Below, piece after piece: positions 21,560 to 43,360 of a stretch of 64,000 nucleotides of DNA; position 1 is the first letter of the stretch; each line of letters starts with the position of its first letter. This DNA comes from an uncultured delta proteobacterium. GTDB lineage: Bacteria; Desulfobacterota; Desulfobaccia; Desulfobaccales; 0-14-0-80-60-11. The stretch spans positions 77,022 through 141,021 of the forward strand of contig CAVZAM010000033.1 in NCBI GenBank assembly GCA_963773285.1, in the 5' to 3' direction. The notes under the pieces are model-generated. The model saw only the letters and a program-made list of their open reading frames with translations. It was not told the origin of the DNA and did not search any database. A program made the translations under genes and the position numbers.

Positions 21560-22429
21560 TCATTTATTAAACTCTTCAAAGAATTTTTCATCCACATCAT
21601 AGGCAGTTTTCGGAATAAGCCCAAGTGGCACCTTTTCAAACATCTGCACGAGAGTATCGCCGTCAACCAGTTCTATGGGAGGTGCACCATCCCTTCGAGC
21701 TTCCTTCTTGGCTTCCAGGGTGAATGTGCCGGTGGTGATGATGATGCCCTTGTCAGCTCTTCCCATCATTGCGCCACGAAAATCCCTTATCTGAGAGGGA
21801 GTTACAGCCCCCTGGTAACGTTTGCATTGGAAAAGAACATTGAAGCTCACGAAAGGATTCACTTGAAGAATGCCCACTCCGTCAATCCCTCCGTCGCCCG
21901 TCTTTCCAGTAACAACCACTTTTTGGAAACCTGACTCCCGCAAGAGTCTCTGACAAAGGCGTTCAAAGCCATTAGGAGGCAAGGACTTAATCAGATTGAG
22001 CAAGTTCGTCCGGTGATCCGGAGGCTCAATTTCTTCTTCCTCTGACTCAGTATCTGCTATTAACCCCTGGTCTTTGGTTTTTTTAACTTTTTCAAACCGC
22101 TTATGAATCGTTTTAAAGGTGCCCAAAACATCAAAGGTTGTATCCTCGGTTTCAGTTGACAGACCTTTCTCCGTGAGACTCCATATGCCACGTTTTGACG
22201 AGTCGATAAGACCTGCTTGCACCAAATAGAAACGTGCCCACTGGATTTGGTTACGGACTCTTGATTGCCCGCCTTTTAGCATCATTTCTTGATCGGATTC
22301 GGGTATTTTCATTTTTTCGATAACTCGGTCAATCACCTCGGATACCGTTCCAGATCCCCCAGTCTCTTTGAGGACCTCAATTATGGGCTTAAAAAAACGA
22401 ATAAACTGCGGGCCTTTGCTTTTACTCAT
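21560..22429 (-). CDS. mrr: Mrr-family type IV restriction endonuclease (Mrr_N winged helix + Mrr_cat)
   Basis: 289-aa ORF in AT-rich DNA. The C-terminus GDGGIDGVGIL...VLFQCKRY carries the D...QxK nuclease motif. The N-terminus has wHTH-like RNQIQWARFYLVQAGLI. Confidence 0.85.
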   Translation of the reverse strand: MSKSKGPQFIRFFKPIIEVLKETGGSGTVSEVIDRVIEKMKIPESDQEMMLKGGQSRVRNQIQWARFYLVQAGLIDSSKRGIWSLTEKGLSTETEDTTFDVLGTFKTIHKRFEKVKKTKDQGLIADTESEEEEIEPPDHRTNLLNLIKSLPPNGFERLCQRLLRESGFQKVVVTGKTGDGGIDGVGILQVNPFVSFNVLFQCKRYQGAVTPSQIRDFRGAMMGRADKGIIITTGTFTLEAKKEARRDGAPPIELVDGDTLVQMFEKVPLGLIPKTAYDVDEKFFEEFNK

Positions 22430-22510
22430 TTTGTCTCACCAACATATCTCCAAGATTTGTTAGTCAATGATATAAACAAAATAAAGGCTTGAAGAGGCAT
22501 GCTTGGGAGA

Positions 22511-24612: not shown

Positions 24613-24667
24613 ATCGACCATCCCAAAAAAAAGGGGCCAGGAAATCCCTGGCCCCGCAAGGTCAGTC

Positions 24668-25129
24668 TTAGGCGCTCTGGGCCTTGGGCTGCGCCGCCAG
24701 CCACGCCTCCCGGGCCTTCTGGCGCAGGGGGCTGGGCCCCAGCTTTACTGCCCGCTCGGCCATTTCGTTGGCGATGGCCGCAAATCTCGGCCCCTCGGAA
24801 GAGGAGAGGTTGAACATCTCCAGGCGGTCGGGGTCGAAGCCCATCTGCTCGAAGTCCTTCTTGACCTTGGCCACCCTTTTCCTGGCCTGGATGTTCCCGG
24901 ACAGGTAGTGGCACTCGCCCTCGAGGCAGCCGGCCACAAAGACCGCATCCGCCCCGCCCTCGAAGGCCTTGAGCAAATGCAGGATGTCCACCCGGCCGGT
25001 GCAGGGCATCAGGATGATCTTAATCTCCGGAGGATACTGCAACCGCATCGAACCTGCCAGGTCCGCGGCGCTGTATGCTCAGTAGCGGCAGCAAAAACCG
25101 ATGATCTTGGGGATATAAGGCTCGCTCAT
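24668..25129 (-). CDS. MvhD/FlpD-like hydrogenase delta-subunit family protein, predicted selenoprotein (in-frame TGA at 25081-25079)
   Basis: ATG at 25129. MSEPYIPKIIGFCCRY-TGA-AYSAADLAGSMRLQYPPEIKIILMPCTGRV all lies in one frame. The TGA aligns with the second Cys of the family motif CxWC-SY-GAD-AG. Confidence 0.8.
25043..25068 (-). promoter_or_regulatory. candidate bacterial SECIS hairpin
   Basis: CCGC-GGACC-UGGCA-GGUUC-GAU-GCGG. It starts 11 nt after the UGA and has a G-containing apical loop. Confidence 0.55.
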
Positions 25130-25144
25130 CCTCTGCTCCTTTCC

Positions 25145-28100
25145 TTAACCGGCAGCCAGGGCCAGTTCCTGGGCGATGATCTGGATGTCGGTGTAATGTT
25201 TCAGGCTGATGGCCTTGGCCGGGCACTCCGAGACGCAGACGCCGCAGCCCTGGCACTTGGCCGGGTCGATGTAGGCGGCGTCGATGGTGTAGTCGATGAC
25301 CGGCACGTTGAAGGGGCAGGTGCGCACGCAGGTGAGGCAGACGGCGCACTTGTCGGGGGTCACTTCCGCCACGATGCCCCCAATCTTGACCTGGTCCATG
25401 CCCAGGAAGGTGGCGGCCCGGCCCGCGGCGGCCTTGGCCTGGGCGATGGTCTCGTCGATGGGCTTGGGATAGTGGGCCAGCCCCGCCAGGAAGATGCCGT
25501 CGGAGGGGAAGTCCACCGGCCTGAGCTTGGCGTGGGCCTCGTTGAAGAAGCCCTCGGCGTTCCGGGAGACCTTGAAAAGCTCGCCCAGCTCCTCGGTGGG
25601 GTTGGGGAGCACGGCGCTGGCCAGGGTCAGGATATCCGGCTTAATGGCCATGGGGAGCCCCAGGATGGGGTCCTTGATGGTGACCTGGATGCCGCCCTCG
25701 GCGGTCTTTGCCACCACCGGCTTGCTGTCGAGATCGAAGCGGATGAAGATGACGCCTTTTTCCCGGGCCTCTTTGTAGAGCAGCTCCTTGTCCCCGTAGG
25801 TGCGCATATCCCGGTAGAGGATAAAGACGTCCATGTCGGGGTTCATGGTCTTGAGCTCGAGAGCGCTTTCCACCGAGTGGGTGCAGCACAGGCGGCTGCA
25901 GTAGGGGCGCTCCGGCTCCCTCGAGCCCACGCACTGGATGAAGACGGCCTGCTTGGCGCCGGTCACCCGGGGGTCTTTGGCCACCAGGGCCTTATCCAGG
26001 TCGAAGGCCAGGAAGACGTTGTCGTGCTGGCCGTAGAGGTATTCCTCGGGGCTGAAGGGCTTGCCGCCGGTGGCCATGACGGTGACGCCGTGTTCCAGCT
26101 CCTTGTCGCCGTCCGGGGTCTTCACGTTGGACTTGAAGTTGCCCGACAAAGCCGCTGGTTTCGGTTACCTGAGAGTTGAACAGCACCTCAATGTTGGGTG
26201 TGCTTGGTCACCTTGTCGATGAGCCCTTCCAGGTAGCCCCGGTAGTCGTAGCCCCGGTGGCTGGCCACCAGGTTCCAGGCGTTGCCGCCCAACTTGTCGC
26301 CCTGCTCCACGAGGGTGGCCGCAAAGCCCATGTTGGCGATGGACATGGCCGCTTCCATGCCGGCCACGCCGCCGCCGATGACCAGGGCGCTCTTGGTGAC
26401 CGGGAAGGCCATCTTGTGAAGAGGCTCCAGGTTGGTGAGGCGGGCGGCCACGCCCCGGATGAGGTCCTTGGCCTTTTCCAGGGCCTTTTCGGGCTCGTGC
26501 ATGTGCACCCAGGAGTCCTGGTCCCGGATGTTGGCCATCTCGAAGAGGTAGGGGTTGAGGCCCGGCCTGCTGGATGGTCTCCATGAACATGGGGGCGTGG
26601 GTCCGGGGGCTGCAGGAGGCCACCAGCACCCGGTTCAGCTTGTGCTCCTCGATGGCGTCCAGGATCTTGCCCTGGGTGTCGGCCGAGCAGGTGAAAAGGT
26701 TTTCATCGGCCAGCACCACGTTGGGAAGGGTGGCAGAATATTCCGCCAGGGAGGGGACGTCGATGACCCCGCCGATATTGATGCCGCAGTTGCACACGAA
26801 GACGCCGATCCTGGGCTCTTCGCCGCTGACGTCCCGCTCCGGCGGCAGTTCCGGCTTCTTGAGCTCGGTGCCCCGGGCCGCCGCGAGGAGTTCGCCGGCC
26901 GCAGCCGCGGCGGCGGAGGCCTCCATGACCGACTGGGGGATGTCCTTGGGGTTCTGGAAGACGCCGCAGACGTAGATGCCCGGCTGATTGGTGGACACCG
27001 GCGTGAACGGCGAAGACTTGGCGAAGCGGGTCTCGGGGACCACGTCCACGTCCAGGGTCTTGGCCAGTTTCAGGGCGTCCGGAGAGGCCTCCAGCCCCAC
27101 GGAGAGGACCACCATGTCGAAGTCTTCTTCCTTAATTTCCCCGTTCTCGGCGATATACCGCATGCGGACGTCGTCGGTGTCCGGGATGCGGTCGATGGTG
27201 TGGATGCGGGAGCGGACGAAGCGGATGCCGTGCTCGTCCTGGGCCCGCCAGTAATATTTCTCGAATTCCTTCCCCATGGTGCGCATGTCCATGAAGAAGA
27301 TGGAGGCGTCCAGTTCGTAGGTCTTGGCGTGTTCCTTGGCGATCACCGCCTGCTTGATGGCGTACATGCAGCACACCGACGAGCAGTAGCTGTTGTCGCA
27401 GTGATTGAGGTCCCGGGAGCCGACGCACTGGAGCCAGGCGATCTTCTTGGGCTCCTTGTGGTCGCTGGGCCGGATGAGGTGGCCGGCAAAGGGTCCCGAG
27501 GCCGACAGGATCCGCTCGAACTCCAGGCTGGTGACCACCCCGGGGTACTTGGCATAGTGGTAGGCCGAATATTTGGTGGGGTCGTAGGCCTGAAAACCCG
27601 GGGCCAGCACCACCGCGCCCACATTGAGCTCTATTTTCTTGGGGGCCTGGTCGTGGGACACGGCCTTGGCCTGGCAGGCAATGGCGCACTGCATGCACTC
27701 GGAGCACACCCCGCAGTTGATGCAGCGGGCGGCCTCGGCCACGGCCCGTTCCTTGTCGTAGCCCAGGTTGATTTCCTTGAAGCCCTTAAGCCACTCTTCC
27801 ACCGGGATGTGGGGCATGACGGACCGGGTCTCCGGGGTGAACTCCTGGGGGATGGGGTTCCACTCGCCTTCTTGGATGGGGCGCAGGGGCATCTGCCGGT
27901 CTGCCAGAAGGTCCTGGCCGTGCAGGTGGCGCTCGATGGAGACCGCGGCTTCCCGCCCGTCGGCCACCGCGGCGATGGCGATCCAGGGGCCGGAGACGAC
28001 GTCGCCGCCGGCAAACACGCCCTCCCGGCTGGTGGCCCGGGTGGCCGGGTCGGCCTTGATGAGGCCCCGGGGGGTGAGTTCGATGCCGTCCGCCTCGGTG

Positions 28101-29605
28101 ATGAAGCCCAGGTTGGCTTTCTGGCCGATGGCCAGGATCACCACGTCGGCATTTTCGGTTTTAAGCTTATCTTCAAAATAGGTGGGGGCGAAGCGGCCGG
28201 TCTCGTCAAAGACCCGTTCCACGGCCTTCATCTCGAGGCCCGTAACTTTGCCGCCCTGGGCCGTTACCTGTTTGACGCCCCAGCGGTGCAGGAAGGGGAT
28301 GCCTTCGGCTTCGGCCTCCTCCACTTCCCAGGTGTTGGCGGGCATTTCGTCGCGGTTTTCCAGGCAGACGATGCTGACGTCCTTGGGGCCCAGGCGCTTG
28401 GCAGTCCGGGCCACGTCCATGGCCACGTTGCCGCCGCCCACGACGATGACTTTCTTGCCCTTGATATCGGGGGCTTTTTTGGCGGCCGCGTCCTTGAGGA
28501 ACTCAACGCCCCACAGCACCCCGTCGGCGTCGGAGCCGGGCACCGGGATGCGCAGCGAATCCTGGCAGCCCACCCCCAGATAAACGGCCCTGAAGCCGTC
28601 CCGGGTGAGCAGGTCGTTGATGGTGCGGCCGGGGCCGATGGGAGTGTTGCAGTGAATCTCCACCCCCAGCTTTTTGATGTAATTGATTTCTTTATCCAGA
28701 ACTTCCCGGGGCAGGCGGTAGGCCGGGATGCCGTAGCGCAGCCAGCCGCCGGGCTCGGGCGCGGCCTCGAAAATCACCGCTTTATAGCCCATCATGGTCA
28801 GGTGATAGGCGCAGGACAGGCCGCCGGGGCCGGAGCCGACGATGGCCACGGCACCTTCCTGTGGATCGATTTCGGGCATCGGCAGGGCGTCCCAGTCCAC
28901 CTGGTCGGCCACAAAACGCTTCAGGTCGCAGATGGCGATGGGTTCATCCATCTGCTGGCGGCGGCAGTCGGTCTCGCAGGGGTGGGGGCAGATGCGGCCG
29001 ATGGTCCCGGGCAGCGGCAGCCGGTCCATGATGAGGGCCAATGCCTCCGGGTATTTTTCCGCCTTGATGAGCTGCACGTAGCCCTGGGCGCTGAGATTGG
29101 CCGGGCAGGCCCTGACACAGGGGGCCCGGTCGAACTTCTTGATGGCGAAGGTGGAGGGGATGGCCTGGGGATAGAGGCGGTAGATGGCCTGGCCCTGGTT
29201 CAGCCCGATGTTGAACTCGTTTGGCACCCCCACCGGGCAGACCTCGGTGCAGGCGCCGCAGCCGGTGCACTTGGCCGGGTCGATGTAACGGGGTTCCTGC
29301 TCCAGGGTAACGGTGAAGTTCCCGGGCTCGCCCTTGATGTCGGTAATCTCGCTCAAGGTGAGAATTTCGACATTTAAATGGCGGCCGCACTCCACGAGTT
29401 TCGGGGAGATGATGCACATGGAGCAGTCGTTGGTGGGAAAGGTCTTGTCCAACTGCGCCATGACGCCGCCGATGGCCGACTTTTTTTCCACCAGATGAAC
29501 GTAGAAACCGGCGTTTGCCAGGTCCAGAGCTGCCTGCACCCCGGCGATGCCGGCCCCCACGACCATCACCTTGCCTACCGGTTTTTGGGGGGCCTGTGGT
29601 GCCAT
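25145..29605 (-). CDS. large HdrA-like flavoprotein fused with a GltD/NfnB-like NAD(P)H oxidoreductase module and a second HdrA module (three apparent frameshifts)
   Basis: The N-terminus VMVVGAGIAGVQAALDLA...DCSMCIISPK is HdrA-like. The insert CVRACPANL...IVGSGPGGLSCAY...GGGNVAMDVART is GltD-like. Two CVGSR(D/E)..C..CC motifs and C-terminal ferredoxin CxxCxxCxxxCP motifs are present. Frames switch at about 26556-26566, 26188-26203 and 26140-26146. Confidence 0.85.
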
Positions 29606-29869
29606 ATATATCCTTCCCTTGCTGATGTTTTGTATTCTAGAATGCTTGATGTTCAGGTATTGTGAAATACACCACTAGTCACTATATCGAAAAGCAGGCA
29701 AGCAAGTCAAGTAACAATCTTGGCAGGTGAAAACCTTTGAGAGAAGGCCCTTATTATGAGGAATAAGGAAGCTGGCTGAAGAGGGTGGTCCCGGATTTGA
29801 TCAAGGGGGGCTGGGAGTACGGGGTCCTGGGACAGGGGAGGGCACTTATTCCCAAAACCCCGGTTGGTC

Positions 29870-30430: not shown

Positions 30431-30505
30431 TTATCTCTCAAGGGATTGGGGGTGGTGGTGTGGGCGAGGGGGTAAGGACCCGCCGGCCCCTAGTCCCCTC
30501 ACCCA
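30431..30505. repeat. G/C-rich palindromic element (half-element, inverted orientation)
   Basis: AAGGGATTGGGGGTGGTGGTGTGGGCGAGGGGGTAAGGACCCGCCGGCCCCTAGTCCCCTCACCC matches the reverse complement of the HP1 side of 11941-12010. Confidence 0.75.
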
Positions 30506-30513
30506 CTCTCTCT

Positions 30514-31569
30514 CTACTCTTCCCACCCAGTGACCCGCACAATCTGGTTGGCGGTGTTGTTGTTGTCCAGGTACAGCCTGTGGGTGGCCGGCACCCCGCA
30601 GCTGAAGGCCAGGGCCCCCCGCACCCCATAGAGGGGCACGGCCGGCGGCGCGGCATGAAGAAGAATAGCCGGGTTGCTGCCGTCATAAGAAACCGCCAGC
30701 TTGACGTCGAAGCCGTTCGTGGCCGCAGCATAGCCCGTGAGGCGCCGGGCCGTGGGGGGTGCGGCCAGGGCCAGGTCGAAGGCGGTAAGGCCATTGATGG
30801 CGCCCAGGGCCAGGTCCCGGGGGGTATAGAAGGAGCAGGCGCCCCCTTCCTGGGCAAAGGGCACCAGGTTGCTGCCGGTGTCGTTTAAGATCATCCCCAG
30901 GGAGCGGCAGTTGGTCTTGGGGAGCACCACGAACCAGTCCCCCTGGGCGAGGCTCAGGGCCGCGCCGCGGTAGGTGATGGTGCCATTGGTGCCGTTATCG
31001 CTGTTGTTGGCGGTGATGGCCCGCATGAGGCCCCGGGAGGCCCCGGTGAGGACCAGGACCTTGCCGTCCACCAGCTCGTTGGCGATAAGGCCGTAGCCGA
31101 TGCCGGCGGTATTGGCATTGTTCCTCAGGGTGATGACCTGGGCCGCCTGGGAGGACACCCGCATCAGGGGCATGCCCTTGAGCATGAAAGTCGTGTCGGC
31201 CGAGCCCGCCACTGCCAGGACGGCGTACCACTGGCTGGCTTTCTCCGTGCCCCAGAGGCTGCCGGTGACGGCCAGGTCCAGGAGGCCAGGGACGGCGTTT
31301 TCCCGGTAGCGCCCGTCAGAGAGGCCGCCGTCCACCAGGGCCCCCCGGTGCAATGGCGATGGGAACCCGGAGAGCATGACCCGGGCTTTGCAGTCAGGAG
31401 TAGCGTTGACCTGGACCTGGGAAGGGCCCAGGTATTCCAGGGCAGGGCCTCGGGTCAACGCGAAGCTCTCCACCACCGCCTGCTCAATTTTGTCGAAGTC
31501 GCCCTTCAGGATGACCTGGCGGCCGGTGCCGCTGTTCCACTTGGACTGGGGAAGGTCAATCAAAGCCAT
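30514..31569 (-). CDS. phage tail fibre/receptor-binding accessory protein (hypothetical)
   Basis: 351-aa ORF directly downstream of the giant tail gene. It has a Gly/Ala/Asn/Thr-rich beta-type composition (NNANTAGIGYG, NNSDNGTNGTITY). Confidence 0.55.
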   Translation of the reverse strand: MALIDLPQSKWNSGTGRQVILKGDFDKIEQAVVESFALTRGPALEYLGPSQVQVNATPDCKARVMLSGFPSPLHRGALVDGGLSDGRYRENAVPGLLDLAVTGSLWGTEKASQWYAVLAVAGSADTTFMLKGMPLMRVSSQAAQVITLRNNANTAGIGYGLIANELVDGKVLVLTGASRGLMRAITANNSDNGTNGTITYRGAALSLAQGDWFVVLPKTNCRSLGMILNDTGSNLVPFAQEGGACSFYTPRDLALGAINGLTAFDLALAAPPTARRLTGYAAATNGFDVKLAVSYDGSNPAILLHAAPPAVPLYGVRGALAFSCGVPATHRLYLDNNNTANQIVRVTGWEE

Positions 31570-31595
31570 GATGCCGCCTCACTTTTTCTATAAAT

Positions 31596-31650
31596 TTGGC
31601 TTATTGGGAGGAGGGCCCACTTGGCCCTTAGCCCCTTCCCCCACTAAACT
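31596..31650. repeat. G/C-rich palindromic element (short variant)
   Basis: GGGAGGAGGGCCCACTTGGCCCTTAGCCCCTTCCCCC, in the gap between two tail genes. Confidence 0.65.
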
Positions 31651-31658
31651 TCTATGAC

Positions 31659-34600
31659 TCAGCCGGCACAGGACCGGTTATTCCAATTGGCATCCAGCTT
31701 GTTGTCCTGGTCAATGGCATCGGCATCGTAGGTGGTGCCCGCCGCATCCACGGCCCAGGCGCAGGTGTTGGTGAAGGGCCGGGCCAGGTTCAAGCTGACC
31801 CGCCGGGCCTCCAGGTCCACGGACTTGCCGTACACCGAGAATTCCTCCCGGGTGTAGCCGTGGAAGGGGGAGGTGATGGCCAGGGTGTCGCCGATTTCCA
31901 GGCGGGCTCCCTCCAGCCAGGTGTCCAGATCCACCACCTCCCAGGGGGAGGACAGGCGCTGCAACAGGCGGGCGGCCAGCAACTGGCCCACGGCCGGGTC
32001 TTCCAGGACCACCCGGGAGCTGTACCTCAGATCGAGATCCACCGCCGCTTCCCCCAGGGAGGCAATTTTGGCGCTGTCCCGGGCCTCGCAGTACCGGCTG
32101 TTGTCCTGGTTGTAGTCGGCGAAATACAGCCTCACCAGGTTTTTCGCCCCGGCCAGCTGATAGCCGGAGGCGAGAGAGCGGATGCGGGCGGGGTCCAGGC
32201 TCACCAGGTTGTCCGCCAGCATGAAGCCCCACAACTTGTCGAACCAGGTCCAATCCCCCGTATCCTGACCATGGGCCAGGGCCGGCCCCATCATCAGCAC
32301 CAGGGCCTCCGTGGACCCCAGGCGCTCCACGAAGACGTAGTTGGGGGCATACTCCCAGACATCCGTGGCCTCAAGATAGGTGAAAGGGATGAGGTCGGCA
32401 TTGAGGAGATTTGGCTTGGCGTCGCCGGCATGCTGGAAGAGCCAGCTCATGAGCGTGTCGAAATGGGCCGCATCCTCGGGAATGCCGGGGAAAGGAAATG
32501 CCGCACCCTTGAGCCCGTGCGCGGCCAGACCGAAGGACTGAATCACCAGGGCGTTGAGCCAGGCATAGTGGTAGTCGCTCTTATAGCCGCCGCCGTACTC
32601 CTGGCTCTGCCGGTTCAGGCGCAGATCATCCAGGATGCGCCGGGCCCAGGTGGCCGCCGAGGCTTGCCCGCCTCGCAGGTAGGTGTACAGGCAACCCAGG
32701 GCCAGAGAGGCGGCCGCCCCGGGGTCGTAGGCGCCGTAGGTGAAGCCGTACTCGGAAAAATAAATGGGGAATTTCCAGCCGCTGCCCTCCGGCGCCCCAT
32801 ACGCGTCCAGCCAGGCCAGCCAGTTTTCCAGGATGTCCCGGGCCCCGGGGTCATTGCTGATAAAGTAAAACTGGGCCAGGCGGTAAAAAGACCAGTACTG
32901 CCCTAAAGCGTGGCCCACCTCCGGGTAGGCGCTGCCGTTTTCAACCCCCTGGATTACGGCCCAGCGCCCGCTGATCTCGCCCTGGTCCATGCCCCGGGCG
33001 TGCACCCGGACAAAGTCGATCTGCCCCGGAAATACCGCGCCCGTACTTTGCCACCGGCCCAAATACAGCGGCTCGGCCACCGGCGTGAGGGTCGGGGTGT
33101 AGGTGAGGGAGGCCGCCAGGGTGCCGTTGACATAAAAGTTGACGACGCTCCCGGTCCTGGTGGCCACCACGTAATACCAGGCGTTTTTGGGGCTGGCGCT
33201 GCCGGCGACCACGGTGGCGGCGCCGTTCAAAACACAGGTGAATTTGTTGCTGGCATCCCGCCCCAGGCTGTAACTGCCCAAGCCGCCGATGTTGCCCTTT
33301 TGCAGGATGCCCCCACCCACGCCGTCGGCGGTGGGATAGACCAGGGCCTCCAGGGTGAAATCGCCGCTTGGATTCAGGCTGGCATGGTCCGGCACCGTGA
33401 GGTAGCGGGACCCGGAGCAGTCGGCGCTGGTCTGGCCGGGCTGGCACAGGCCGGAGGCGTAGGTGGGGGTACCCACCCAGGCGGCGTCGTTGCCGTTGCC
33501 GCTGGCGTCCTGGGGAGAAGCGTTGAAGGGCCAGTACCCCGCCAATTTGCCGTAGTCACGGTACTTGGGCCACCAGCAGAACTTCCCGAAATTTTCTTCG
33601 CCGCACAGGGAGATGTTTTCCAGGTCATTGCGGGTGTGCACCGGCATAACCGGGCCTTTCAAGCCGCCGTAACGCCGGTTGAATTCGTCCTGGGCGTCCC
33701 GGTGCAGCCCGAGAAAGGTCTGGCTCAGGTTTGACGCACCCACCAGGTAGGGGGCCAGCGGGTGGGCGTAGTGCACCAGGGTGGGGCCCCGCCAGGGGCT
33801 CTGGCCGTAGGGCCCCAGGGAAATGGCCAGCCGCGGCACCAGGGGGTAAGGGTCGTCGGCCACGATATTAAGCCCCACGTCGTCCAGCCACCACTCGTGG
33901 GTCTCCAGCCCCTGCTGCTCGATCTTGAACTCCAGGAGCCGGAGTTGCGTGGCCCCGGCAAAGCTCTGGCGGGCGTCGAACTTGAGGTCGGTGATATACA
34001 TGGCGCCGTTGGTGGGGGGGGAGGAGGCAATGCCGATGTCCACTATCTGGAGGGGATGAACCATGGGGCTTGACCCCGATTCCACCTGCATGCCCCCCAG
34101 GTTCACGGTCACCCGCTGCCAGGTATTGGTGGTAACGGTTTGGTTCTGGTAGAAATAGCTCCCCTGGGCATCTTTGACCTTCACCCGGATGGTAAGCGAA
34201 CCTGCCCCCGATACCACGGGATTGATGAGAAAATTGATATTGCCGCGGCCCTGGGAGGGGCAGCGGTTGGTGTCGATGCCCACCCAGGCCCCGAAGGACG
34301 TGACCCCGGGGCCGAAATCCCAGGCCACCTGGCATTGCGTGTAATAGGTATCCCCGAAGATGATCTCGGTCACCCCCCGGTCGCTGATGACGATGGAGTC
34401 GGCGCCCTGCTGGCCGGCGGCATACCAGGACCCCCAGGTGGCCCGCTCCCGGTCCCGGTCGTCGATGATATTGTCCCGCCGCCAGAATTGGCTGAAGGGA
34501 ATCTCAAAGGGGGTGAGCTCGGTGAAGCGGTCCGGGATGGCATGGACAAAGGTGTGGGCCTCGCTGAAGGGGTCGGGGTTGCCGGGGGTGGAATTGTTCA

Positions 34601-35786
34601 GGGTGACCAGCAGCCGGCGGGGGTATTCTTCAGGCTCCCCCGCCAGAAAGGTCCAGTAATCGCCGCTCACAAAATCAGCGCCGCTCCCCGCTTCCCAGGC
34701 CACCGACACACCGCCCCAGAGGGCCAGGGGGTGGTTCCGGTCCCCGGTGATCAGCCCCGTACCGGTCCAGGTGATGCCGCCGTCCTTGGACCAGCGGAAG
34801 GTGGCCTGTCCCACCTCCCCCCCGGACTCCATCTGGATCACGAAATACCTTCTTTCGAGACGGGTGTAGTCCCCGGACAGGATCAGGGTGGCGGAGCCAG
34901 TGCCGTATTTGGTGACGTCGTGGAGCCGCCACTGGAAGCCCGTGCCCTGCAGCTTGAAAGACACCCGGTCGATGGCCGCAAAGGGGGCCTTCTCCAAAGA
35001 CCAGTTCAGCCCGTACCCCCACCAGGCGCCGTCCGTCTGGGCCGGCAGGTCGGCGCGCACGTGCAGCACCCTTCCTTCGGCGCCCTGGGCCAGCTCGGTG
35101 TTGAACACCTGGAAGGTCCCGCCCGCCCGGGTGTCGTCCCGGTAAAGGAAATAAGCCCCCCGCTCCCAGAGTTGGCGCTCAAAGGTATCATACACCAGGG
35201 GGGAGGTGGCGCTGGCCTCCCGGGCCACCGCTGCGTCCCACAGGAACTGGCAGGCCTCGCTGAAGTCCTCCCCCCGCTCCCGGCCGGCCAGGTGCAGGTA
35301 AACCATGAGGTCCAGCATGCGGTCCACCGCAAAGTCATAGGTATAGTCCGACTGGCTGCGGCAGGCCTGCCTGATGCACGGGTAATTATTGAGGGCCGCA
35401 TATTTTTCGGAGGTTTCCCCGGTATAATAAATGTAGAAGAGCTGCACTGGCGTTCCCGGGGAGAGGGTGTTGCCCAGGGTCAGGGTGGTGGTTGGTCCCT
35501 GCTGGCTGAAAGACCCCCCCGCATAATAATCCGTCAGGTCCCCGTCCATGGGGTCGGCCCAGAAACCGTCCCAGGCAAAGCTCGTTTCCTGGTGCCAGAC
35601 CCCCCGCACATAAGCCACCTGGCCGCCGCCCGGGTTGGGGCTGGTAATCTGCACCGTGCCGTTCAGACCAACCTGGGCCGTGGCCCGATCGGCCCTGCCG
35701 GACACCGTGGCCATAAGCGGGGTTCCCCCCAGGTTGTCATAGACCCAGTTGAACTGGGACGATCTGGCCCAATCAATACGCGCCAT
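31659..35786 (-). CDS. giant distal tail / host-specificity protein with LamG-like domain
   Basis: 1375-aa ORF with a LamG/concanavalin-like block (GNGNDAAWVG..FTLEALVYP..WYYVVATRTGSVVNFYVNG..IDFVRVH). A W/Y-rich region follows that may be glycosidase-like (inference). The C-terminus LEIGDTLAITSPFHGY looks like a tail-tip protein. Confidence 0.75.
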   Translation of the reverse strand: MARIDWARSSQFNWVYDNLGGTPLMATVSGRADRATAQVGLNGTVQITSPNPGGGQVAYVRGVWHQETSFAWDGFWADPMDGDLTDYYAGGSFSQQGPTTTLTLGNTLSPGTPVQLFYIYYTGETSEKYAALNNYPCIRQACRSQSDYTYDFAVDRMLDLMVYLHLAGRERGEDFSEACQFLWDAAVAREASATSPLVYDTFERQLWERGAYFLYRDDTRAGGTFQVFNTELAQGAEGRVLHVRADLPAQTDGAWWGYGLNWSLEKAPFAAIDRVSFKLQGTGFQWRLHDVTKYGTGSATLILSGDYTRLERRYFVIQMESGGEVGQATFRWSKDGGITWTGTGLITGDRNHPLALWGGVSVAWEAGSGADFVSGDYWTFLAGEPEEYPRRLLVTLNNSTPGNPDPFSEAHTFVHAIPDRFTELTPFEIPFSQFWRRDNIIDDRDRERATWGSWYAAGQQGADSIVISDRGVTEIIFGDTYYTQCQVAWDFGPGVTSFGAWVGIDTNRCPSQGRGNINFLINPVVSGAGSLTIRVKVKDAQGSYFYQNQTVTTNTWQRVTVNLGGMQVESGSSPMVHPLQIVDIGIASSPPTNGAMYITDLKFDARQSFAGATQLRLLEFKIEQQGLETHEWWLDDVGLNIVADDPYPLVPRLAISLGPYGQSPWRGPTLVHYAHPLAPYLVGASNLSQTFLGLHRDAQDEFNRRYGGLKGPVMPVHTRNDLENISLCGEENFGKFCWWPKYRDYGKLAGYWPFNASPQDASGNGNDAAWVGTPTYASGLCQPGQTSADCSGSRYLTVPDHASLNPSGDFTLEALVYPTADGVGGGILQKGNIGGLGSYSLGRDASNKFTCVLNGAATVVAGSASPKNAWYYVVATRTGSVVNFYVNGTLAASLTYTPTLTPVAEPLYLGRWQSTGAVFPGQIDFVRVHARGMDQGEISGRWAVIQGVENGSAYPEVGHALGQYWSFYRLAQFYFISNDPGARDILENWLAWLDAYGAPEGSGWKFPIYFSEYGFTYGAYDPGAAASLALGCLYTYLRGGQASAATWARRILDDLRLNRQSQEYGGGYKSDYHYAWLNALVIQSFGLAAHGLKGAAFPFPGIPEDAAHFDTLMSWLFQHAGDAKPNLLNADLIPFTYLEATDVWEYAPNYVFVERLGSTEALVLMMGPALAHGQDTGDWTWFDKLWGFMLADNLVSLDPARIRSLASGYQLAGAKNLVRLYFADYNQDNSRYCEARDSAKIASLGEAAVDLDLRYSSRVVLEDPAVGQLLAARLLQRLSSPWEVVDLDTWLEGARLEIGDTLAITSPFHGYTREEFSVYGKSVDLEARRVSLNLARPFTNTCAWAVDAAGTTYDADAIDQDNKLDANWNNRSCAG

Positions 35787-35790
35787 CAGT

Positions 35791-37377
35791 CTAATCCTCC
35801 CCCAGGTAAGCCCTGATCTTGATCATGCCAAAGTCCACCCACAGGTCATATAAACAGCGCTGCAAGACCTCACGGAGGGCCTGGCTGGCGGAGATATTCT
35901 CGAAGCAGGCCCCCACGACGTACTCCGGCGTCAGGCTCTTGGCCAGGTTGAATGACTCCTGGTCCACTGCCTCGCTTAACCCCACTGCCGCCAAGATATC
36001 CACCATGATGTCTACCGGGTGGGTGATGCCGTCTTTTACCACCCGGGCGCTTACCTGGGCGGTCTGGCCGGTTACCAGAACGTCGCCGGTTTCAAGGTTG
36101 GCGCTCACACCCTCAAAAACCTCCTCGTCATTTAGATAAATGGCGGTGATGGCCTCGAAGGGCGCGCCGGCCAGGCTGTAAGTGTAGATTGGCGCCTGGG
36201 CCGTGAAGGTGCAGACGTCACCGGCCGCCAGATCAGTGCCGATGCCCGGCTGCCAGTACACTGACAACCCCTCCGAGAGGGTCACCGGGTTGTCGGCCCC
36301 GCCGCAGATCAGCCCGGTCTTTTCCCAACTCTGGCCGCTGTTGATGGACCACCTGAACGTAGCCGAACCCACCTCCCCGGTAGCCTCGATTTGCAGGTAA
36401 TAATTAGTAACCACATCCCCGCGGTAATCTCCGAGAACCAGCAGACTGGCGCTGCCGCTGCCGCTTTTGGCCGGAGAACCCACCACCGCTGGCGTGAACT
36501 GCATCAGCTCGCCCCCGGTCCGGTAAAAGCCATGCATAAAAGGGTGACGCATCCCATCCGGGGTGGGGGCGCCCAGGACCTGGTTCAGGCGATAGGTGAT
36601 CCAGTCCTGGGTCGCAAGTTTCACCTGGTGACGCTCCTGCCAGCCGTCCGCCATGTTATCGAGGCCGGTCACCGCTCCCTGGTAGACCAGCAGCCAGTCC
36701 GCCTGGCCGTCGGCCAGCTCGAAGCCGTGATACAGGGCCAGGAGTTTTTCCTCCCAGGGCAGGCCCAGCACCGTAAAGTTATCCCCGCCCGGCAGCCACT
36801 GGGCCTGCCGGTTGTCCAGGCTTAAAGTGTGGCTGCCGCTTTTGAGCCCGCTGAAGTCCCGGGCCAGGTCCACCTGCACCGCCCCGGGGCTCAGCAGCTC
36901 GCTCTCCGGGATGCTCATCCGGCCCGCCAGGTTAAGCCCGGAGATGTAAGCCGGATAGGTGCCGCTGCCCGAGCCCGCCTGGAATTCCACCCTCACCTGA
37001 AAATAAGGCCAAAGGGCGTATTCCACCTGGGAGGCGAGCGGCACGTAGGCCGCCCCGGCCACCTGGTCCAGCGAGGCCGCCCCCCTGAGATAAACCAGGG
37101 CTCCCGGGGAGCCGCTGTGGTCTTCCCAGGAAGGGATCACGTTGTCAATCTGGGCAGAAAAAGTCTGCATCACTGGAGACGTCCAGGACCCGGAGGCAGC
37201 ACCCTGGTCCAACTCAATTCTGCCGGATTCGCCCCCGTAGTGCGCCTGCTCGAACGCCCCGGAGCCAGGCCCCAACCCATAATCCAGGTCAAAGGGGAAA
37301 AGCACTGCCTTGACCCGTGGTCTGGCCCCCCTGAGCCTCGCTTCTTCCTGGAGAAATGCCCCGCTCACCTGTCTCAT
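35791..37377 (-). CDS. phage tail protein (hub/tip-associated, hypothetical)
   Basis: 528-aa ORF between a small tail ORF and the giant tail gene. It shares a ~70-aa module (YYLQIEATGEVGSATFRWSINSGQSW...GDVCTFTA) with 31659..35786. Confidence 0.65.
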   Translation of the reverse strand: MRQVSGAFLQEEARLRGARPRVKAVLFPFDLDYGLGPGSGAFEQAHYGGESGRIELDQGAASGSWTSPVMQTFSAQIDNVIPSWEDHSGSPGALVYLRGAASLDQVAGAAYVPLASQVEYALWPYFQVRVEFQAGSGSGTYPAYISGLNLAGRMSIPESELLSPGAVQVDLARDFSGLKSGSHTLSLDNRQAQWLPGGDNFTVLGLPWEEKLLALYHGFELADGQADWLLVYQGAVTGLDNMADGWQERHQVKLATQDWITYRLNQVLGAPTPDGMRHPFMHGFYRTGGELMQFTPAVVGSPAKSGSGSASLLVLGDYRGDVVTNYYLQIEATGEVGSATFRWSINSGQSWEKTGLICGGADNPVTLSEGLSVYWQPGIGTDLAAGDVCTFTAQAPIYTYSLAGAPFEAITAIYLNDEEVFEGVSANLETGDVLVTGQTAQVSARVVKDGITHPVDIMVDILAAVGLSEAVDQESFNLAKSLTPEYVVGACFENISASQALREVLQRCLYDLWVDFGMIKIRAYLGED

Positions 37378-37409
37378 GGCTTATCCTTAAATTCACAGCC
37401 CATAGCCGG

Positions 37410-37775
37410 CTATACCTCGTCCAGGGTGATGCTCCCGGACCACAGGCCCGGCGACACCTCCCGGAAGTCCAGGTCGTTGGTCCACAGTCCCGTAAAGGTC
37501 TTGGCGCCCCCGTCCTCCCGGTAAAAGTCGATCTCCACCTGGGCCTGCTTGATGGCCGCCAACTGTTCTTTCTGGGCCGTCCCGATATACTTGAAATGCA
37601 GCACCCACTGGGCCTTCATGCTTCGGGTATAACTCCTCAGGGTGCCGTCCAGGGCCCGCTCCCGGTCGCAGTCGTCGGTGCTCAGTTCCTGGTAATCGTA
37701 GGTGAAGTTCACCGGCAGCGTGTAACTCATGGGACCGCTTCCCGGCGGCGTCCATTCCAGCTTGGCGTTGGCCAT
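37410..37775 (-). CDS. small phage tail protein (distal-tail position)
   Basis: 121-aa ORF immediately after the tape-measure-like gene. No recognisable motifs. Confidence 0.5.
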   Translation of the reverse strand: MANAKLEWTPPGSGPMSYTLPVNFTYDYQELSTDDCDRERALDGTLRSYTRSMKAQWVLHFKYIGTAQKEQLAAIKQAQVEIDFYREDGGAKTFTGLWTNDLDFREVSPGLWSGSITLDEV

Positions 37776-37784
37776 ATGCTCTCC

Positions 37785-38567
37785 TTACCAGTTGCGGTTG
37801 GCTTCCCGCTGCAGGGCAGGCAACAGGTGCCGCTGCACCACTTTGCCCCAGTCCATGCCGGCCACACTGGCCGCGTCCAAACTCTGTACCTGGATGGTGA
37901 TGTCGTAGCGGGGGCCGGCGCTTCCCTGGTTCATCTGAAACCGCCCCGAGCGCAGGGCCTCGAAATTATCTTCCCCCAGCTGCACCATGGTGTCCCGGGG
38001 GAGGATGCCTTCCCCGGTCTGGACCTTGATGAGGCGCTCGTCGGCCAGCAGGGTCTCCGGAGACACCGCCAGGCCGCTGTGGGCCTCGAGGATCCCCCCC
38101 TCGTGGAAGATGCCCCCAAACCCCAGGCCGGTGCTTACCCAGGAGGCTATGTCGTTGCCCGAACCGCCCGCGCCCCCTCCCAGGTTCAACTGGGAACCCT
38201 GGCCCGCCAGGTCCAGGGTCTGGGTCAGCTGCTCCCCCAGGGCGCTGACGTCATTGCCGATCCCGGCCAAAGCCTCCTGCCAGCTCTGGGCCAGGGTGTT
38301 GCCGGCATCGATGCCCCTGGAGCTGATCTCGTCAAACATGGCGGCGGCGCCTCCCCCCATCTGCGCCAGGGTTCCCTGCCAGTCCTGCTGAAAGCTGTTC
38401 CAGGACGCGGCCATGCCCTCCATCTCCTGGGACCAGACCGCCTGGCGCTGCTGGCTGTATTCCTGGCTGATGGCGGTCATTTCCTCCTGGTAGGAGCGGT
38501 AATTTGCCAGTTTCTGGTCGTAGCTGGTGCTGCTGGTGGTGCTCTGCTTAGAGGTGCTTGTGGACAT
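37785..38567 (-). CDS. short tape-measure-like protein (260 aa)
   Basis: Gln/Ser/Ala-rich helical N-terminus, a Gly-rich middle, and a C-terminal FHEGGIL....ADERLIKVQTGEGILPRD as seen at tape-measure C-termini. It follows two chaperone-like ORFs. Confidence 0.6.
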   Translation of the reverse strand: MSTSTSKQSTTSSTSYDQKLANYRSYQEEMTAISQEYSQQRQAVWSQEMEGMAASWNSFQQDWQGTLAQMGGGAAAMFDEISSRGIDAGNTLAQSWQEALAGIGNDVSALGEQLTQTLDLAGQGSQLNLGGGAGGSGNDIASWVSTGLGFGGIFHEGGILEAHSGLAVSPETLLADERLIKVQTGEGILPRDTMVQLGEDNFEALRSGRFQMNQGSAGPRYDITIQVQSLDAASVAGMDWGKVVQRHLLPALQREANRNW

Positions 38568-38904
38568 TGCTTCCTCCCTGTGGCTGGGCCAGGGCCTCTT
38601 CCACCAGCCCGAGCAGCAGCCAGGTCTCCAGGCTCAGGTCATTGGCCCGGAAAGGGTAGCCGGCTTTTTTGAGCCGGTGCAGGAACATCAGGTGCCAGGT
38701 CCAGGGTGAGACGGCCTCCGGTCTCAGGTATTCGGCGCAGGTGCCGCAGGCCCAATCCGAGAAGGCGCCGTCTTCAGCCTGGCAGATGCGCCGCTGCTCC
38801 GGCCGGCAAAGACGCCCCCGGGCCAGGGTGTAGAGCTCCTGTAAAACCGTCTGGGTTCCCGGCCATTCCTGGTTACTATGGGGTTCAGCCCGGTTCAGGA
38901 ACAC
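38548..38904 (-). CDS. tail assembly chaperone-like ORF (T-like, -1 frame relative to upstream ORF)
   Basis: 118-aa ORF with a GTG start, overlapping the 3' end of 38895..39278 by 10 nt in the -1 frame. Confidence 0.4.
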   Translation of the reverse strand: MFLNRAEPHSNQEWPGTQTVLQELYTLARGRLCRPEQRRICQAEDGAFSDWACGTCAEYLRPEAVSPWTWHLMFLHRLKKAGYPFRANDLSLETWLLLGLVEEALAQPQGGSNVHKHL

Positions 38905-39278
38905 TCCGCCCCTCCCCGCCCCAGGGCCCGCAGGCCCTCAAACACCTGTTGCCCGAGGTAGGACACCAGGTCCGGGGCGTGTTGGCGAAGATGCTCTTTC
39001 CAGTCTGGATGATGCTCCGGGTCCAGGTCCTGCACTTCTCCCTCCCCCTGGATCAGAAAATCCCCGGCCCCAAACCCCACCAGGATCTCCAGGCCGAACC
39101 TGAGCCGGGTGTCGCTCAGGCGCAGGCGCCGCTCCCCGCTGTCCAGGTGAAACACCGACAGCTGGTAGGCCACCCGCTCCTCGGAGGTCGGCCGGCGGAA
39201 ATAAAAGGTGATTACCGAATCGCTCACCGGGTCCTGGATGGCCATCTTGTGGCGCTCTTCTCCTAATAATCTCGGCAT
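38895..39278 (-). CDS. tail assembly chaperone-like ORF (G-like)
   Basis: 127-aa acidic ORF between the putative major tail gene and the tape measure. An internal ATG (MAIQDPV) is an alternative start. Confidence 0.45.
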   Translation of the reverse strand: MPRLLGEERHKMAIQDPVSDSVITFYFRRPTSEERVAYQLSVFHLDSGERRLRLSDTRLRFGLEILVGFGAGDFLIQGEGEVQDLDPEHHPDWKEHLRQHAPDLVSYLGQQVFEGLRALGRGGAECS

Positions 39279-39291
39279 CTTCCAGTCCTTT

Positions 39292-39321
39292 ATCCCCCCT
39301 TTCTAAAGGGGGCTGGGGGAT
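39292..39321. repeat. palindromic element
   Basis: ATCCCCCCTTTCTAAAGGGGGCTGGGGGAT, in an intergenic gap of the phage cluster. Confidence 0.7.
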
Positions 39322-39366
39322 TTGCTGTAAAGCCTGATGATGGGCCGCTGCATTAACGAAGGACGA

Positions 39367-40659
39367 TTAGGCCGCGTAGCCGCTCACCAGGTTTTGCACC
39401 CGCACGATCACCGAGCCGTAGGTGTCATCCTCCAGCACCGCGAACTCCACGCCCTCGGCGAGCCGTCGCTGCGACACCGACACCGGCGCCGCCGACACCG
39501 CAATGCGGGGGAAGATTATCTCCACCTGGTAGGGAATCCCGGTTTCGAACTCCGGCCCCACCGCTTTCAGGTAGATCCCGAAGTAATCGGTGTCCTTGAG
39601 ACTCTGGGTCATGAGGAAATCCCGGAAGTCCCGGTCCATAGACAGTTTTTGCTCCCGGCCGGTGCGATAGGCCCGGTTGGCGAAATCGCCCCCGCCCGGG
39701 CTGCGCTCCGGCGACAGGTTGTTCTGCAGATTCCACACCAGGCGCCTGATCTCCGCGGCCGGGGTGTAGCCGCCGGTGAAGCCGCTGCCGTTCCAAGCCC
39801 CGCCGATATTCACCGTGAGCTGGCTCACCTTGAGGGGCGGCTCCTCCACCCGGGCCGGGAAGGCCATCCAGCCGCTTTCCCGGGGCACGTAATAAACCTT
39901 GTAGGTCGTGTTGGCCCCGCTGCTCCCCGGCGGCATAATGGTCACCACCCCCGGCGTCCCCCCGGACACCGCCGTGTAACCGACTTCGTCCCAGGCCCCG
40001 GTGGTGGGGTTCAGCACCTTCACCGCCTGCACGTTGGCCAGGTAATCGGCGGCGCTGGCGCCCTCCACACCGTTCGCTGCCAGGGACAGGGCGCTGGCGT
40101 TATAAGGGGCGTTTACTGCCTCCACCAGGGTGTTGTCCGTCACCTTGCCCGTCCCTTTCACCACCCCGTTGACCTTGGCCCAGCCGTCCTTGGCGAACTC
40201 CACCCGCACCTGGTCCACGAAACAGGACGCAAAGCGCCGCTTCATCACCTGGCGCCCGTAGCGCATGGCCGCCGTAAAGGAAGGGTTGGACCGGGCCGCG
40301 TCCACTTCCCCGGACCGGGGCTGCATGACGTGGCGATGGCCGCTGATCCCCAGGGGCGAGCTGGTGACGCTTCCCAGGGCATAGGCCAGCAGGAAAGCGA
40401 AGTGCTGCGGCTGGGCCCGGGAGAAGGCCAGGGTTCCCGCCACCGTCCCCCCCAGGTCGTAAAGCCGGTCCGCTTCTTCCTTGCCGGTAATCTCGTCCCG
40501 GTTGGCCGATTTGAGCGGCCGGTAATTGAGGACCGTGTTCAAATCCACCAGGAAGCTGGTGTCCAGCGCCTGCTCCTGATTGATGGCGCTCTCCTGGTGG
40601 TTGGCTGACACGGCCAGCATGTTGTGGGTGGCCAAAAAATTGCGTATCGACCTGGTCAT
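39367..40659 (-). CDS. putative major tail protein (430 aa)
   Basis: The ATG at 40659 is preceded by GGGAGGA. Its position after the gp36/gp37-like connectors and before the chaperone-like ORFs suggests a tail tube subunit with an inserted domain. There is no direct motif evidence. Confidence 0.45.
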   Translation of the reverse strand: MTRSIRNFLATHNMLAVSANHQESAINQEQALDTSFLVDLNTVLNYRPLKSANRDEITGKEEADRLYDLGGTVAGTLAFSRAQPQHFAFLLAYALGSVTSSPLGISGHRHVMQPRSGEVDAARSNPSFTAAMRYGRQVMKRRFASCFVDQVRVEFAKDGWAKVNGVVKGTGKVTDNTLVEAVNAPYNASALSLAANGVEGASAADYLANVQAVKVLNPTTGAWDEVGYTAVSGGTPGVVTIMPPGSSGANTTYKVYYVPRESGWMAFPARVEEPPLKVSQLTVNIGGAWNGSGFTGGYTPAAEIRRLVWNLQNNLSPERSPGGGDFANRAYRTGREQKLSMDRDFRDFLMTQSLKDTDYFGIYLKAVGPEFETGIPYQVEIIFPRIAVSAAPVSVSQRRLAEGVEFAVLEDDTYGSVIVRVQNLVSGYAA

Positions 40660-40690
40660 CAGTATTCCTCCCAAAGCTGCATCGCCACTC

Positions 40691-41131
40691 TTACCGGTCC
40701 TGGATCGCCGTGGTGCGGTAATGGGCTCTATATACCGTGTATTCGCGGTCGGCCAGGAGCGGCTCTTCCCGGACCAGGGCAAAAGGCAGCACGCCCAGCC
40801 CCAGGTCCTTTTGCCACAGGGCGTCCTGCACCCCCAGCAGGAGGTCGTAAGCCCCGCCGGTGTCGCGCCGGCCGGCCTCCTCACCCCTGAGGCTGCGCAC
40901 CACCACCAGCACCTGAAAATCCAGGGTCAGGTCGAAGGAAGATACCCCCACCTGCTGACAGTTGCTGCCGGAGAGCATCACCAGCACTGCCGGCATCCGC
41001 CAGGTGGCCTGGGGGAGGTCCGTCTTCCAATTCCCCTGGTAGCTCTGTATGGTTCCGGCCTGCTCCCCCAGCCGGGCCTGCAGGGCCGCCACCACCGCGT
41101 CCTCCACCGTGGTCCAGGACAGATCGCTCAT
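40691..41131 (-). CDS. Mu gp37-like (DUF1834-type) head-tail connector protein
   Basis: 146-aa ORF: MSDLSWTTVEDAVVAALQARLG...MPAVLVMLSG...FDLTLDFQVLVVVRSLRGE. The pattern and position match Mu-like gp37 homologues (recalled similarity). Confidence 0.55.
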   Translation of the reverse strand: MSDLSWTTVEDAVVAALQARLGEQAGTIQSYQGNWKTDLPQATWRMPAVLVMLSGSNCQQVGVSSFDLTLDFQVLVVVRSLRGEEAGRRDTGGAYDLLLGVQDALWQKDLGLGVLPFALVREEPLLADREYTVYRAHYRTTAIQDR

Positions 41132-41566
41132 AGCCTTACCAGTTTCCCTGGGTATCCCGGGTAAAGATCCGGGTGGCGCTGCTGAACTCCACTCCCGCCT
41201 GGATCTGGGCCGCCGGCCTGGCCGGCATCGCCGCTCTGCTCCACCACCGCCCCCTCCGCGGCCACCAGCTTAAGGAAACTCACCGCCGCCTCGTACTTCT
41301 GCTGACGTACCGCCGGGACCACGCTGCGCCGGGAATAAAGATGGTAGAGGGCCATGTCCATGGCTAGCCCCATGACCTGATCCGGCACCGGGTTGAGAGG
41401 CAGCGTGTGCCGCATCCCCAGGTAAGAGTCGATTTCCGCTGTCCGCCCGCTGGATGGCCTCTGCCACCACCTGGCTGTCCGGAGTGTCCCCGGAGTCCGC
41501 CGTCAGTTCGGCCAACTCCTTTACGGGAATCATGGTGAGAAGATCGTTTTGGGTGCAGTAAGCCAT
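41128..41566 (-). CDS. Mu gp36-like (DUF1320-type) head-tail protein (frame disrupted at about 41425-41432 and again near 41200-41250)
   Basis: MAYCTQNDLLTMIPVKELAELTAD...AIQRAD continues in another frame as AEIDSYLGMRHTLPLNPVP...ALYHLYSRR. A third frame gives the C-terminus VEFSSATRIFTRDTQGNW. Confidence 0.6.
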
Positions 41567-41686
41567 ATCGTGTGTCCTTTGCTGCAGGGAACTGTCCGGT
41601 TATGTCAGTCCGCTGCTGAAGTCCTGGTGAACTCCGCCTGCGTCATCTGCTTCTGCAGGGTGCTGCGTTCGGCCATTTTTGTCTGG

Positions 41687-42487: not shown

Positions 42488-42489
42488 GT

Positions 42490-42870
42490 CTATTCCTCCT
42501 GGCCGGCCGCCCACTTGCGCAGGTCGCTCAGGTCCGGCGCGGCAATGGCGGTGGCCTTGGCGCGCGCCTGGGAGGGCGTGCTCCCCGCTGCGTCCACTGC
42601 ATTGATGGCGTTCTGGAGTTCAGTCACGGCCACGCAGATGCTCTGCTGTATATTATGGAAGGTGCTCTCCGCCGCGGCCAGCTTGGCCAGAAGCGTGGTG
42701 TCCTGCACCAGGGCCAGGGCCGCCGCCGCAAAGGCCTCGCCCTGCTTGGCCTCGGCCTTCTGGCTGTCCGTGGGGTTGCACAATAGGGCCCCCGCCTTCT
42801 GTAACATGCTGCAGCTGCTGCCCACCAAAGTCAGGCAAATGATTATGAGAACAAGAATCGACTTCTTCAT
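42490..42870 (-). CDS. secreted/lipoprotein-like Ala-rich helical protein (o-spanin-like position)
   Basis: Signal peptide MKKSILVLIIICLTLVGSSC with a non-canonical lipobox-like Cys. The mature part is an Ala-rich coiled-coil-like sequence. Confidence 0.55.
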   Translation of the reverse strand: MKKSILVLIIICLTLVGSSCSMLQKAGALLCNPTDSQKAEAKQGEAFAAAALALVQDTTLLAKLAAAESTFHNIQQSICVAVTELQNAINAVDAAGSTPSQARAKATAIAAPDLSDLRKWAAGQEE

Positions 42871-42900
42871 GGGGTTCTCCCGTTTTTGGGTTATTTCAGC

Positions 42901-43164: not shown

Positions 43165-43165
43165 G

Positions 43166-43333: not shown

Positions 43334-43360
43334 CTTTTCCTCCCTGTCCTCGCTCTGCGC

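Follow-up and report, generated by a model that had tools for sequence, protein, structure and literature searches.

The hdrL-mvhD locus

The window (the whole stretch of DNA that was analysed, 64 kb in length) carries on its minus strand a short mvhD-like gene of the FlpD family, which lies directly downstream of an HdrL-type gene and is followed by an intrinsic terminator. From the ATG at 25129-25127 a frame of 153 codons, containing one in-frame TGA at 25081-25079, extends to the TAA at 24670-24668. Read from the sequence, it has the form MSEPYIPKIIGFCCRY-TGA(25081-25079)-AYSAADLAGSMRLQYPPEIK... and ends at 24670-24668, and it is the single frame through the TGA that the initial annotation of this DNA had described. 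The features of the locus are the following:

24668..25129, minus strand: full-length mvhD-like (FlpD family) gene, predicted to encode a selenoprotein, 153 codons including Sec17; assigned by Pfam and by alignment with PDB chains
25079..25081, minus strand: in-frame TGA, predicted Sec codon 17, in the motif C-C-R-Y-U; TGA in 44 other loci and in the separately assembled contig L081, TGC or TGT in 35 loci
25136..25141, minus strand: Shine-Dalgarno sequence AAGGAG, 6 nt 5' of the ATG at 25129; read directly from the sequence
25049..25065, minus strand: conserved core of the candidate SECIS element, CGGACC-UGGCA-GGUUCG, with a 6-bp stem and an apical loop at 25059-25055; also encodes (A)DLAGS
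25043..25068, minus strand: hairpin as first annotated, consisting of the core and an outer CCGC/GCGG stem, -10.4 kcal/mol; the outer stem is lineage-specific
24625..24655, minus strand: intrinsic terminator closing the operon, a 10-bp GC-rich stem followed by T8
25145..29605, minus strand: HdrL-type gene, partner of mvhD, identified by Pfam, frame analysis and alignment to the related loci L001, L008 and L009; broken by three +1 insertions
29681..29710, minus strand: promoter match of the sigma-70 type, located upstream of hdrL, with 10 of 12 hexamer positions matching; a weak match, one such site being expected by chance here

The ATG at 25129 sits 15 nt past the TAA of the upstream hdrL-type gene, and the start region of mvhD is kept in close relatives. 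In the mechanical list of open reading frames the start of mvhD is placed at the ATG at 25048, which yields a protein of 126 aa and shortens the gene in the way noticed at the outset.

The protein encoded upstream has an FAD/ferredoxin module at its N-terminus and a di-cluster ferredoxin domain at its C-terminus, together with a GltD-like NAD(P)H module (Fer4_20, Pyr_redox_2) and an HdrA-like core, and the same hdrL-mvhD arrangement is found in relatives. The other disruptions in the window had been regarded as frameshifts, and this holds for the hdrA-like gene, which contains three +1 single-base insertions with respect to the intact homologues of L008 and L009 (near 26560 in GGGCC, 26199 in CACACCC and 26144 in GGG). 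The three, which fall within 420 nt and jointly restore the frame, oblige the conserved protein to be read in three successive frames; in L008 the orthologue is an intact ORF of 1485 aa. These insertions may be assembly errors or may mark a pseudogene, and if the frameshifts are real the operon could be decaying in the source genome. A related observation concerns L001 (CAVPIX010000010.1), in which many isolated 1-nt indels are found in hdrL between positions 1300 and 6000 in comparison with both the window and L008. This suggests that the L001 consensus is of low quality over hdrL, and the L001 gene calls in the hdrL-mvhD operon are probably fragmented.

The HdrA motif NIRDQ-C/U-SWVH contains a site that is occupied by Cys or Sec197 in methanogens. 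The HdrL of the window has Asp at this site (26517-26515, minus strand), as do the members of its clade (L001-L031 and others); across 81 loci the residue is Asp in 38, Cys in 33, Asn in 4, Ala in 2 and Gly in 1. A hidden selenocysteine in hdrL at this position was considered and rejected, the window having Asp there and none of the 81 loci having TGA. The MvhD partner thus retains Sec, whereas in HdrL the redox Cys/Sec is gone.

The read-through product as a complete MvhD-like protein

When Cys is put in place of the TGA, the resulting 153-aa product covers the whole of the Pfam profile PF02662 (FlpD, methyl-viologen-reducing hydrogenase delta subunit; positions 1-123 of 123, E 3.4e-47) and aligns end to end with the MvhD chains of solved Hdr complexes (7bkb_F, 5odc_D and others; E 8e-38 to 1e-33). 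Because of this full-profile match and end-to-end alignment, the 16 codons 5' of the TGA belong to the PF02662 domain. The TGA was originally placed at the second Cys of the MvhD/FlpD motif, and in the homologues and solved structures this is the last Cys of CC-x-x-C: residue 17 aligns with the last Cys of CCNWC in the solved MvhD chains. Residues C13, C14, U17, C43, C68 and C73 align with Cys residues of 5odc_D and 7bkb_F, and the PF02662 Cys set CC-x-x-C ... C ... C-x4-C is thus present, with U17 in the CxxU place (C14-R-Y-U17 in the window protein).

A protein database search returned 6170 homologues. Among the closest of these (about 80-98% identity; hits P0001-P0120), almost every gene call is 124-128 aa long and is limited to the stretch that follows Met28. 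Relatives of full length (149-174 aa, 62-75% identity) carry CCRYC or CCRWC, and in every full-length homologue examined from the database U17 corresponds to Cys. Public metagenome gene calls thus mis-annotate the mvhD selenoprotein systematically, starting it at the Met after the TGA. MvhD selenoproteins have been known for decades and are routinely shortened by gene callers.

With regard to function, the FrhD/MvhD/VhuD family (PF02662) is an experimentally verified prokaryotic selenoprotein family with a CxxU Sec motif (PMC13188914), and the [2Fe-2S] cluster of MvhD feeds the bifurcating FAD of HdrA (PMC6019823). By homology to this structurally characterised MvhD, the window protein is likely to bind a [2Fe-2S] cluster and to pass electrons to the FAD of HdrA.

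Conservation of the in-frame TGA

A genome scan using one genome per species recovered 80 loci, 79 of which are comparable at the TGA site, the codon being found by reading in frame upstream of each match. A stop lies at exactly the codon of the window in 44 of these 79 loci, in every case a TGA, and the remaining 35 have TGC or TGT. In the alignment of Cys and Sec MvhD homologues that had been proposed for this gene, the position is thus Cys or Sec throughout. The TGA loci belong to Desulfobaccales/Syntrophobacterales-like MAGs (L001-L031), one Desulfamplus MAG, a Thermodesulfobacteriota single-cell genome, Syntrophus, Syntrophorhabdaceae and ten Acidobacteriota MAGs.

L081 (GCA_052916025.1), a separately assembled contig with 97% DNA identity, shares the TGA and the hairpin. 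Against the window, its mvhD shows synonymous differences in 13 codons, two of them upstream of the TGA, and non-synonymous differences in 2. Pairwise comparison of the nine codons that precede the TGA gives, within the close clade, 1194 synonymous versus 226 non-synonymous codon differences, and the codons upstream of the TGA are under purifying selection. Given the conservation of the TGA in 44 loci and in L081, combined with this synonymous excess, the codon is not an error, nor is it a nonsense mutation of recent date, and both sides of it are translated in one frame.

A conserved hairpin resembling a bacterial SECIS element

The initial annotation proposed a hairpin at 25068-25043, located 11 nt downstream of the TGA, as compatible with a bacterial SECIS. 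This hairpin exists, with a free energy of -10.4 kcal/mol, but its outer CCGC/GCGG stem is not conserved, and the core is formed by the apical 17 nt (25065-25049). The 11-nt spacing had been counted to the base of the outer stem and, because this base is not conserved, the relevant figure is instead the 19 nt that separate the UGA from the apical loop. The element was compared, criterion by criterion, with the bSECISearch model of Zhang and Gladyshev in the form given by the selenoproteome review PMC13188914, in which the loop has a G in its first two positions and typically reads N1-G-[G/U]-N-N2. The core CGGACC-UGGCA-GGUUCG agrees with the published model at every criterion:

Apical loop: 3-9 nt in the model; 5 nt found (UGGCA)
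Upper stem: 4-16 bp in the model; 6 bp found
Loop sequence: N1-G-[G/U]-N-N2 in the model; N1-G-G-N-N2 found, with U and A able to pair
Distance from UGA to loop: 16-37 nt in the model; 19 nt found
MFE (lowest free energy of folding): no higher than -7.5 kcal/mol in the model; -10.4 kcal/mol found for the 26-nt hairpin

The comparison of TGA and Cys genes adds to this agreement in shape. The 15 nt GGACCTGGCAGGTTC (window 25064-25050) are invariant in 45 of 45 TGA sequences, an invariance that spans five wobble sites, namely the last base of each A, D, L, A and G codon. All 18 other degenerate third positions in the 75-nt alignment of the TGA genes vary, and the contrast between 5/5 invariant wobble sites inside the element and 0/18 outside it corresponds to p of about 3e-5 (Fisher-type count). 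The five wobble sites inside the element vary freely among the 35 Cys genes, though the peptide ADLAGS is largely unchanged, and the register-matched 6-bp stem is fully paired in 43/45 Sec sequences versus 0/35 Cys sequences. This pattern shows a constraint on the RNA of the hairpin beyond coding needs. The proposed compatibility with a bacterial SECIS is therefore borne out both by the fit to the bSECIS model and by synonymous sites that are frozen in the TGA genes only.

The base pairs of the hairpin are not equally conserved. In the apical stem 99% of cells are paired and five pairs never vary, and the flanking C:G pair shows one compensatory change to G:C (L032) and is broken in two sequences. 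The outer stem pairs are formed in about 70% of cells (14:39, 15:38 and 16:37 in 26-34 of 35 sequences), do no better than shuffles, show no covariation and are lost in Acidobacteriota, Syntrophus and Syntrophorhabdaceae. An extended MFE helix enclosing the UGA was also considered as part of the element and was rejected, about 72% of its cells being paired, no better than shuffles, with no covariation and with loss in the same lineages as the outer stem.

Folded alone in a 71-nt context, the hairpin reaches -23.9 kcal/mol versus -21.5 ± 2.9 kcal/mol for shuffles (z = -0.81), and 39 of 200 shuffles match it in stability. Single-sequence folding was accordingly dropped as evidence for a SECIS in this sequence of 61% GC and, because the hairpin alone is no better than chance, its significance comes from the comparative data only. 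An Rfam scan at permissive E-values returned no SECIS family and gave weak matches only, which arise from the terminator hairpin at 24618-24696. Within the 64-kb window there is no second copy of the SECIS core and no other credible in-frame TGA, the mvhD site being the only credible one.

Interpretation and alternative explanations

The locus is read here, with a probability of roughly 0.93, as a bacterial selenoprotein gene for an MvhD/FlpD-type iron-sulfur protein that is co-transcribed downstream of an HdrL-type flavoprotein gene. On the comparative data, the original reading of a Sec-encoding TGA in an MvhD-like gene is correct, except for how far the conserved hairpin extends. In the proposed mechanism, the ribosome would reach the UGA at codon 17, and the hairpin CGGACC-UGGCA-GGUUCG, with its loop 19 nt past the UGA, would function as a bacterial SECIS that binds SelB and so recruits SelB-GTP-Sec-tRNA(Sec). 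Selenocysteine would then be inserted, producing a 153-aa protein with Sec in the C-x-x-U motif. By homology, this MvhD-like product is expected to carry a [2Fe-2S] cluster and to exchange electrons with the flavin of its HdrA-like partner, a process in which Sec17 presumably has a chemical role.

Four other explanations were weighed, which jointly retain a small share of the probability. They are contradicted by the strict coupling between the TGA and the element, by interspecies conservation and by a coding constraint that is seen on either side of the TGA. The one that survives best, although improbable, is a read-through without selenocysteine, by a reassigned code, a suppressor tRNA or the insertion of Cys, with the hairpin as a generic stimulator of read-through or pausing. 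It would accord with the fact that the Sec machinery is not seen in the window or in related flanks. Pfam searches of 20 further large ORFs of the 64-kb window found housekeeping genes and a Mu-like prophage and no SelA, SelB or SelD, ARAGORN found no tRNA-Sec (selC) in the window or in 45 related loci, and the flanks of the related loci contain no selA, selB, selD or tRNA-Sec, a locus-level scope that is uninformative on the whole genome. Against such a read-through, TGA is the ordinary stop codon of many well-supported genes of the window, among them pyrG, rpoN and the Mu-like portal gene, so that the genetic code is standard and an alternative code could be ruled out. Moreover, the Cys/Sec pair occurs in a family with experimentally verified Sec, and the loop fits the bSECIS pattern of the SelB type.

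Less probable still is a true stop in a split or truncated gene, in which a 126-aa protein lacking CC-x-x-C would be made from the ATG at 25048 and the first 16 codons would be a relic or a leader peptide. This is the start used by ORF finders and public annotations, but it leaves unexplained the in-frame purifying selection on the upstream codons, the Pfam domain that is complete from position 1 and the proper Shine-Dalgarno sequence and ATG at 25129. The shortened product would also lose three of the six conserved Cys/Sec residues, and a relic would not hold the TGA fixed across several phyla.

The remaining two explanations are very unlikely. A sequencing or assembly error that hides a true TGC or TGT might be suspected from the three single-base insertions in the adjoining hdrL, which indicate an imperfect consensus, but it is in effect refuted: 44 other loci and an independent assembly of 97% identity share this TGA, the nearby errors are indels and not substitutions, and the hairpin is conserved in TGA-bearing genes only. 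Equally implausible is another RNA or DNA function of the invariant 15-17 nt, e.g., a regulatory site unrelated to recoding: invariance alone names no function and covariation is minimal, but the invariance goes strictly with a TGA 14-19 nt upstream and is seen in none of the 35 Cys orthologues, and the element agrees with the SECIS model in shape, in spacing and in the sequence of its loop.

Relation to known MvhD selenoproteins

The initial annotation stated that selenoproteins of the MvhD/VhuD type are known from methanogens and deltaproteobacteria, and they have indeed been published for Methanococcales, Desulfobacterium autotrophicum and Desulfococcus multivorans. The HdrL type was first described in D. 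autotrophicum, in which every hdrA/hdrL gene except hdrA4 is followed by mvhD and in which, in strain HRM2, four mvhD genes (mvhD1, 2, 3 and 5) encode selenoproteins (PMC2702500). A Sec-containing mvhD has also been described in D. multivorans (PMC5109826). As judged from the published descriptions, the window gene resembles these systems in being a Desulfobacterota FlpD/MvhD gene with an in-frame UGA and a SECIS within the ORF, located directly downstream of an hdrA/hdrL-type gene and with no adjacent MvhA/G hydrogenase subunits. It differs from them in belonging to an uncultured Desulfobaccales/Syntrophobacterales-like lineage, the nearest genome locus to the window having about 85% DNA identity, and in its HdrL, which is no selenoprotein itself and carries Asp where HdrA has Cys or Sec.

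The VhuD/FrhD proteins of Methanococcales, Methanopyrus and Lokiarchaeota share with the window protein the PF02662 domain, the N-terminal position of the CxxU and, for the window protein by homology, the role of a [2Fe-2S] adaptor to HdrA. The archaeal proteins contain two Sec residues about 50 codons apart, and their archaeal SECIS is located in the 3'-UTR (PMC4989117). Unlike them, the window gene has one Sec, the second site being Cys68, and its predicted SECIS is of the bacterial kind and lies inside the coding region. The partner is different as well, being an HdrL with an NAD(P)H domain and not a [NiFeSe] hydrogenase. In comparison with the E. coli fdhF SECIS prototype, the element of the window, with its loop UGGCA, has no sequence similarity to the E. 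coli elements. Compared with the bSECIS consensus its core is unusually rigid, 15 nt being identical across at least three phyla although the protein identity drops to about 60%.

Distribution, evolution and annotation

Sec-type mvhD genes with an identical 15-nt core are present in Acidobacteriota (L034, L035, L037, L038, L040, L041, L043, L044 and L065), and the identical core is also found in L050, L052, L032 and L033 (Syntrophus, Syntrophorhabdaceae and Desulfamplus). The Sec MvhD proteins of these lineages have only about 57-67% identity to that of the window. In a rough neighbor-joining tree the Sec forms fall into at least four groups, which are interleaved with Cys forms. Interleaved Sec groups that carry an identical SECIS core fit a Sec form that is old and that repeatedly changed to Cys or was transferred. 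A more far-reaching and rather doubtful proposal is that the Sec mvhD and its rigid SECIS core of 15-17 nt constitute a single ancient module common to Desulfobacterota, Syntrophia and Acidobacteriota, which would have been repeatedly lost to Cys or moved horizontally and, in the Desulfobaccales-like clade, retained despite the Asp in HdrL. A Cys-Sec relay has reportedly been proposed for HdrA in recent work. If the ancient-module proposal is true, Sec in MvhD would have a role of its own that is independent of this relay, e.g., in tuning or protecting the [2Fe-2S] site.

The feature is a further instance of a selenoprotein gene of an already described kind, in a lineage in which gene callers miss it, and knowledge of Sec decoding and of Hdr/Mvh biology is left unchanged by it. 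Its main value lies in the correction of annotation, since nearly all of the closest public calls lack CC-x-x-U. Metabolic reconstructions of uncultured sulfate-reducer- and syntroph-like lineages that build on these shortened calls contain, as a result, a crippled MvhD, and a marker for dependence on selenium escapes them. The family-specific SECIS signature TGA-N14-GGACCTGGCAGGTTC could serve to recover the mvhD selenoprotein in metagenomes.

Surroundings of the operon

Directly upstream of the hdrL promoter match, a Mu-like prophage region occupies approximately 30500-49300 on the minus strand. It contains the Mu portal gene (46308-47588), a gene for Mu-like prophage protein I (45099-46307), a gene for a 1375-aa Laminin_G_3 protein (31659-35786) and, in addition, several large ORFs that lack a Pfam match. 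The nucleotide similarity of the window to its relatives ends at about 29730. On the other side of the operon, an Mrr-type restriction endonuclease gene (Mrr_N and Mrr_cat; 21560-22435, minus strand) has a GC3 of 0.46 versus about 0.8 in the neighbouring kdsA and pyrG, and looks like a small horizontally acquired insert.
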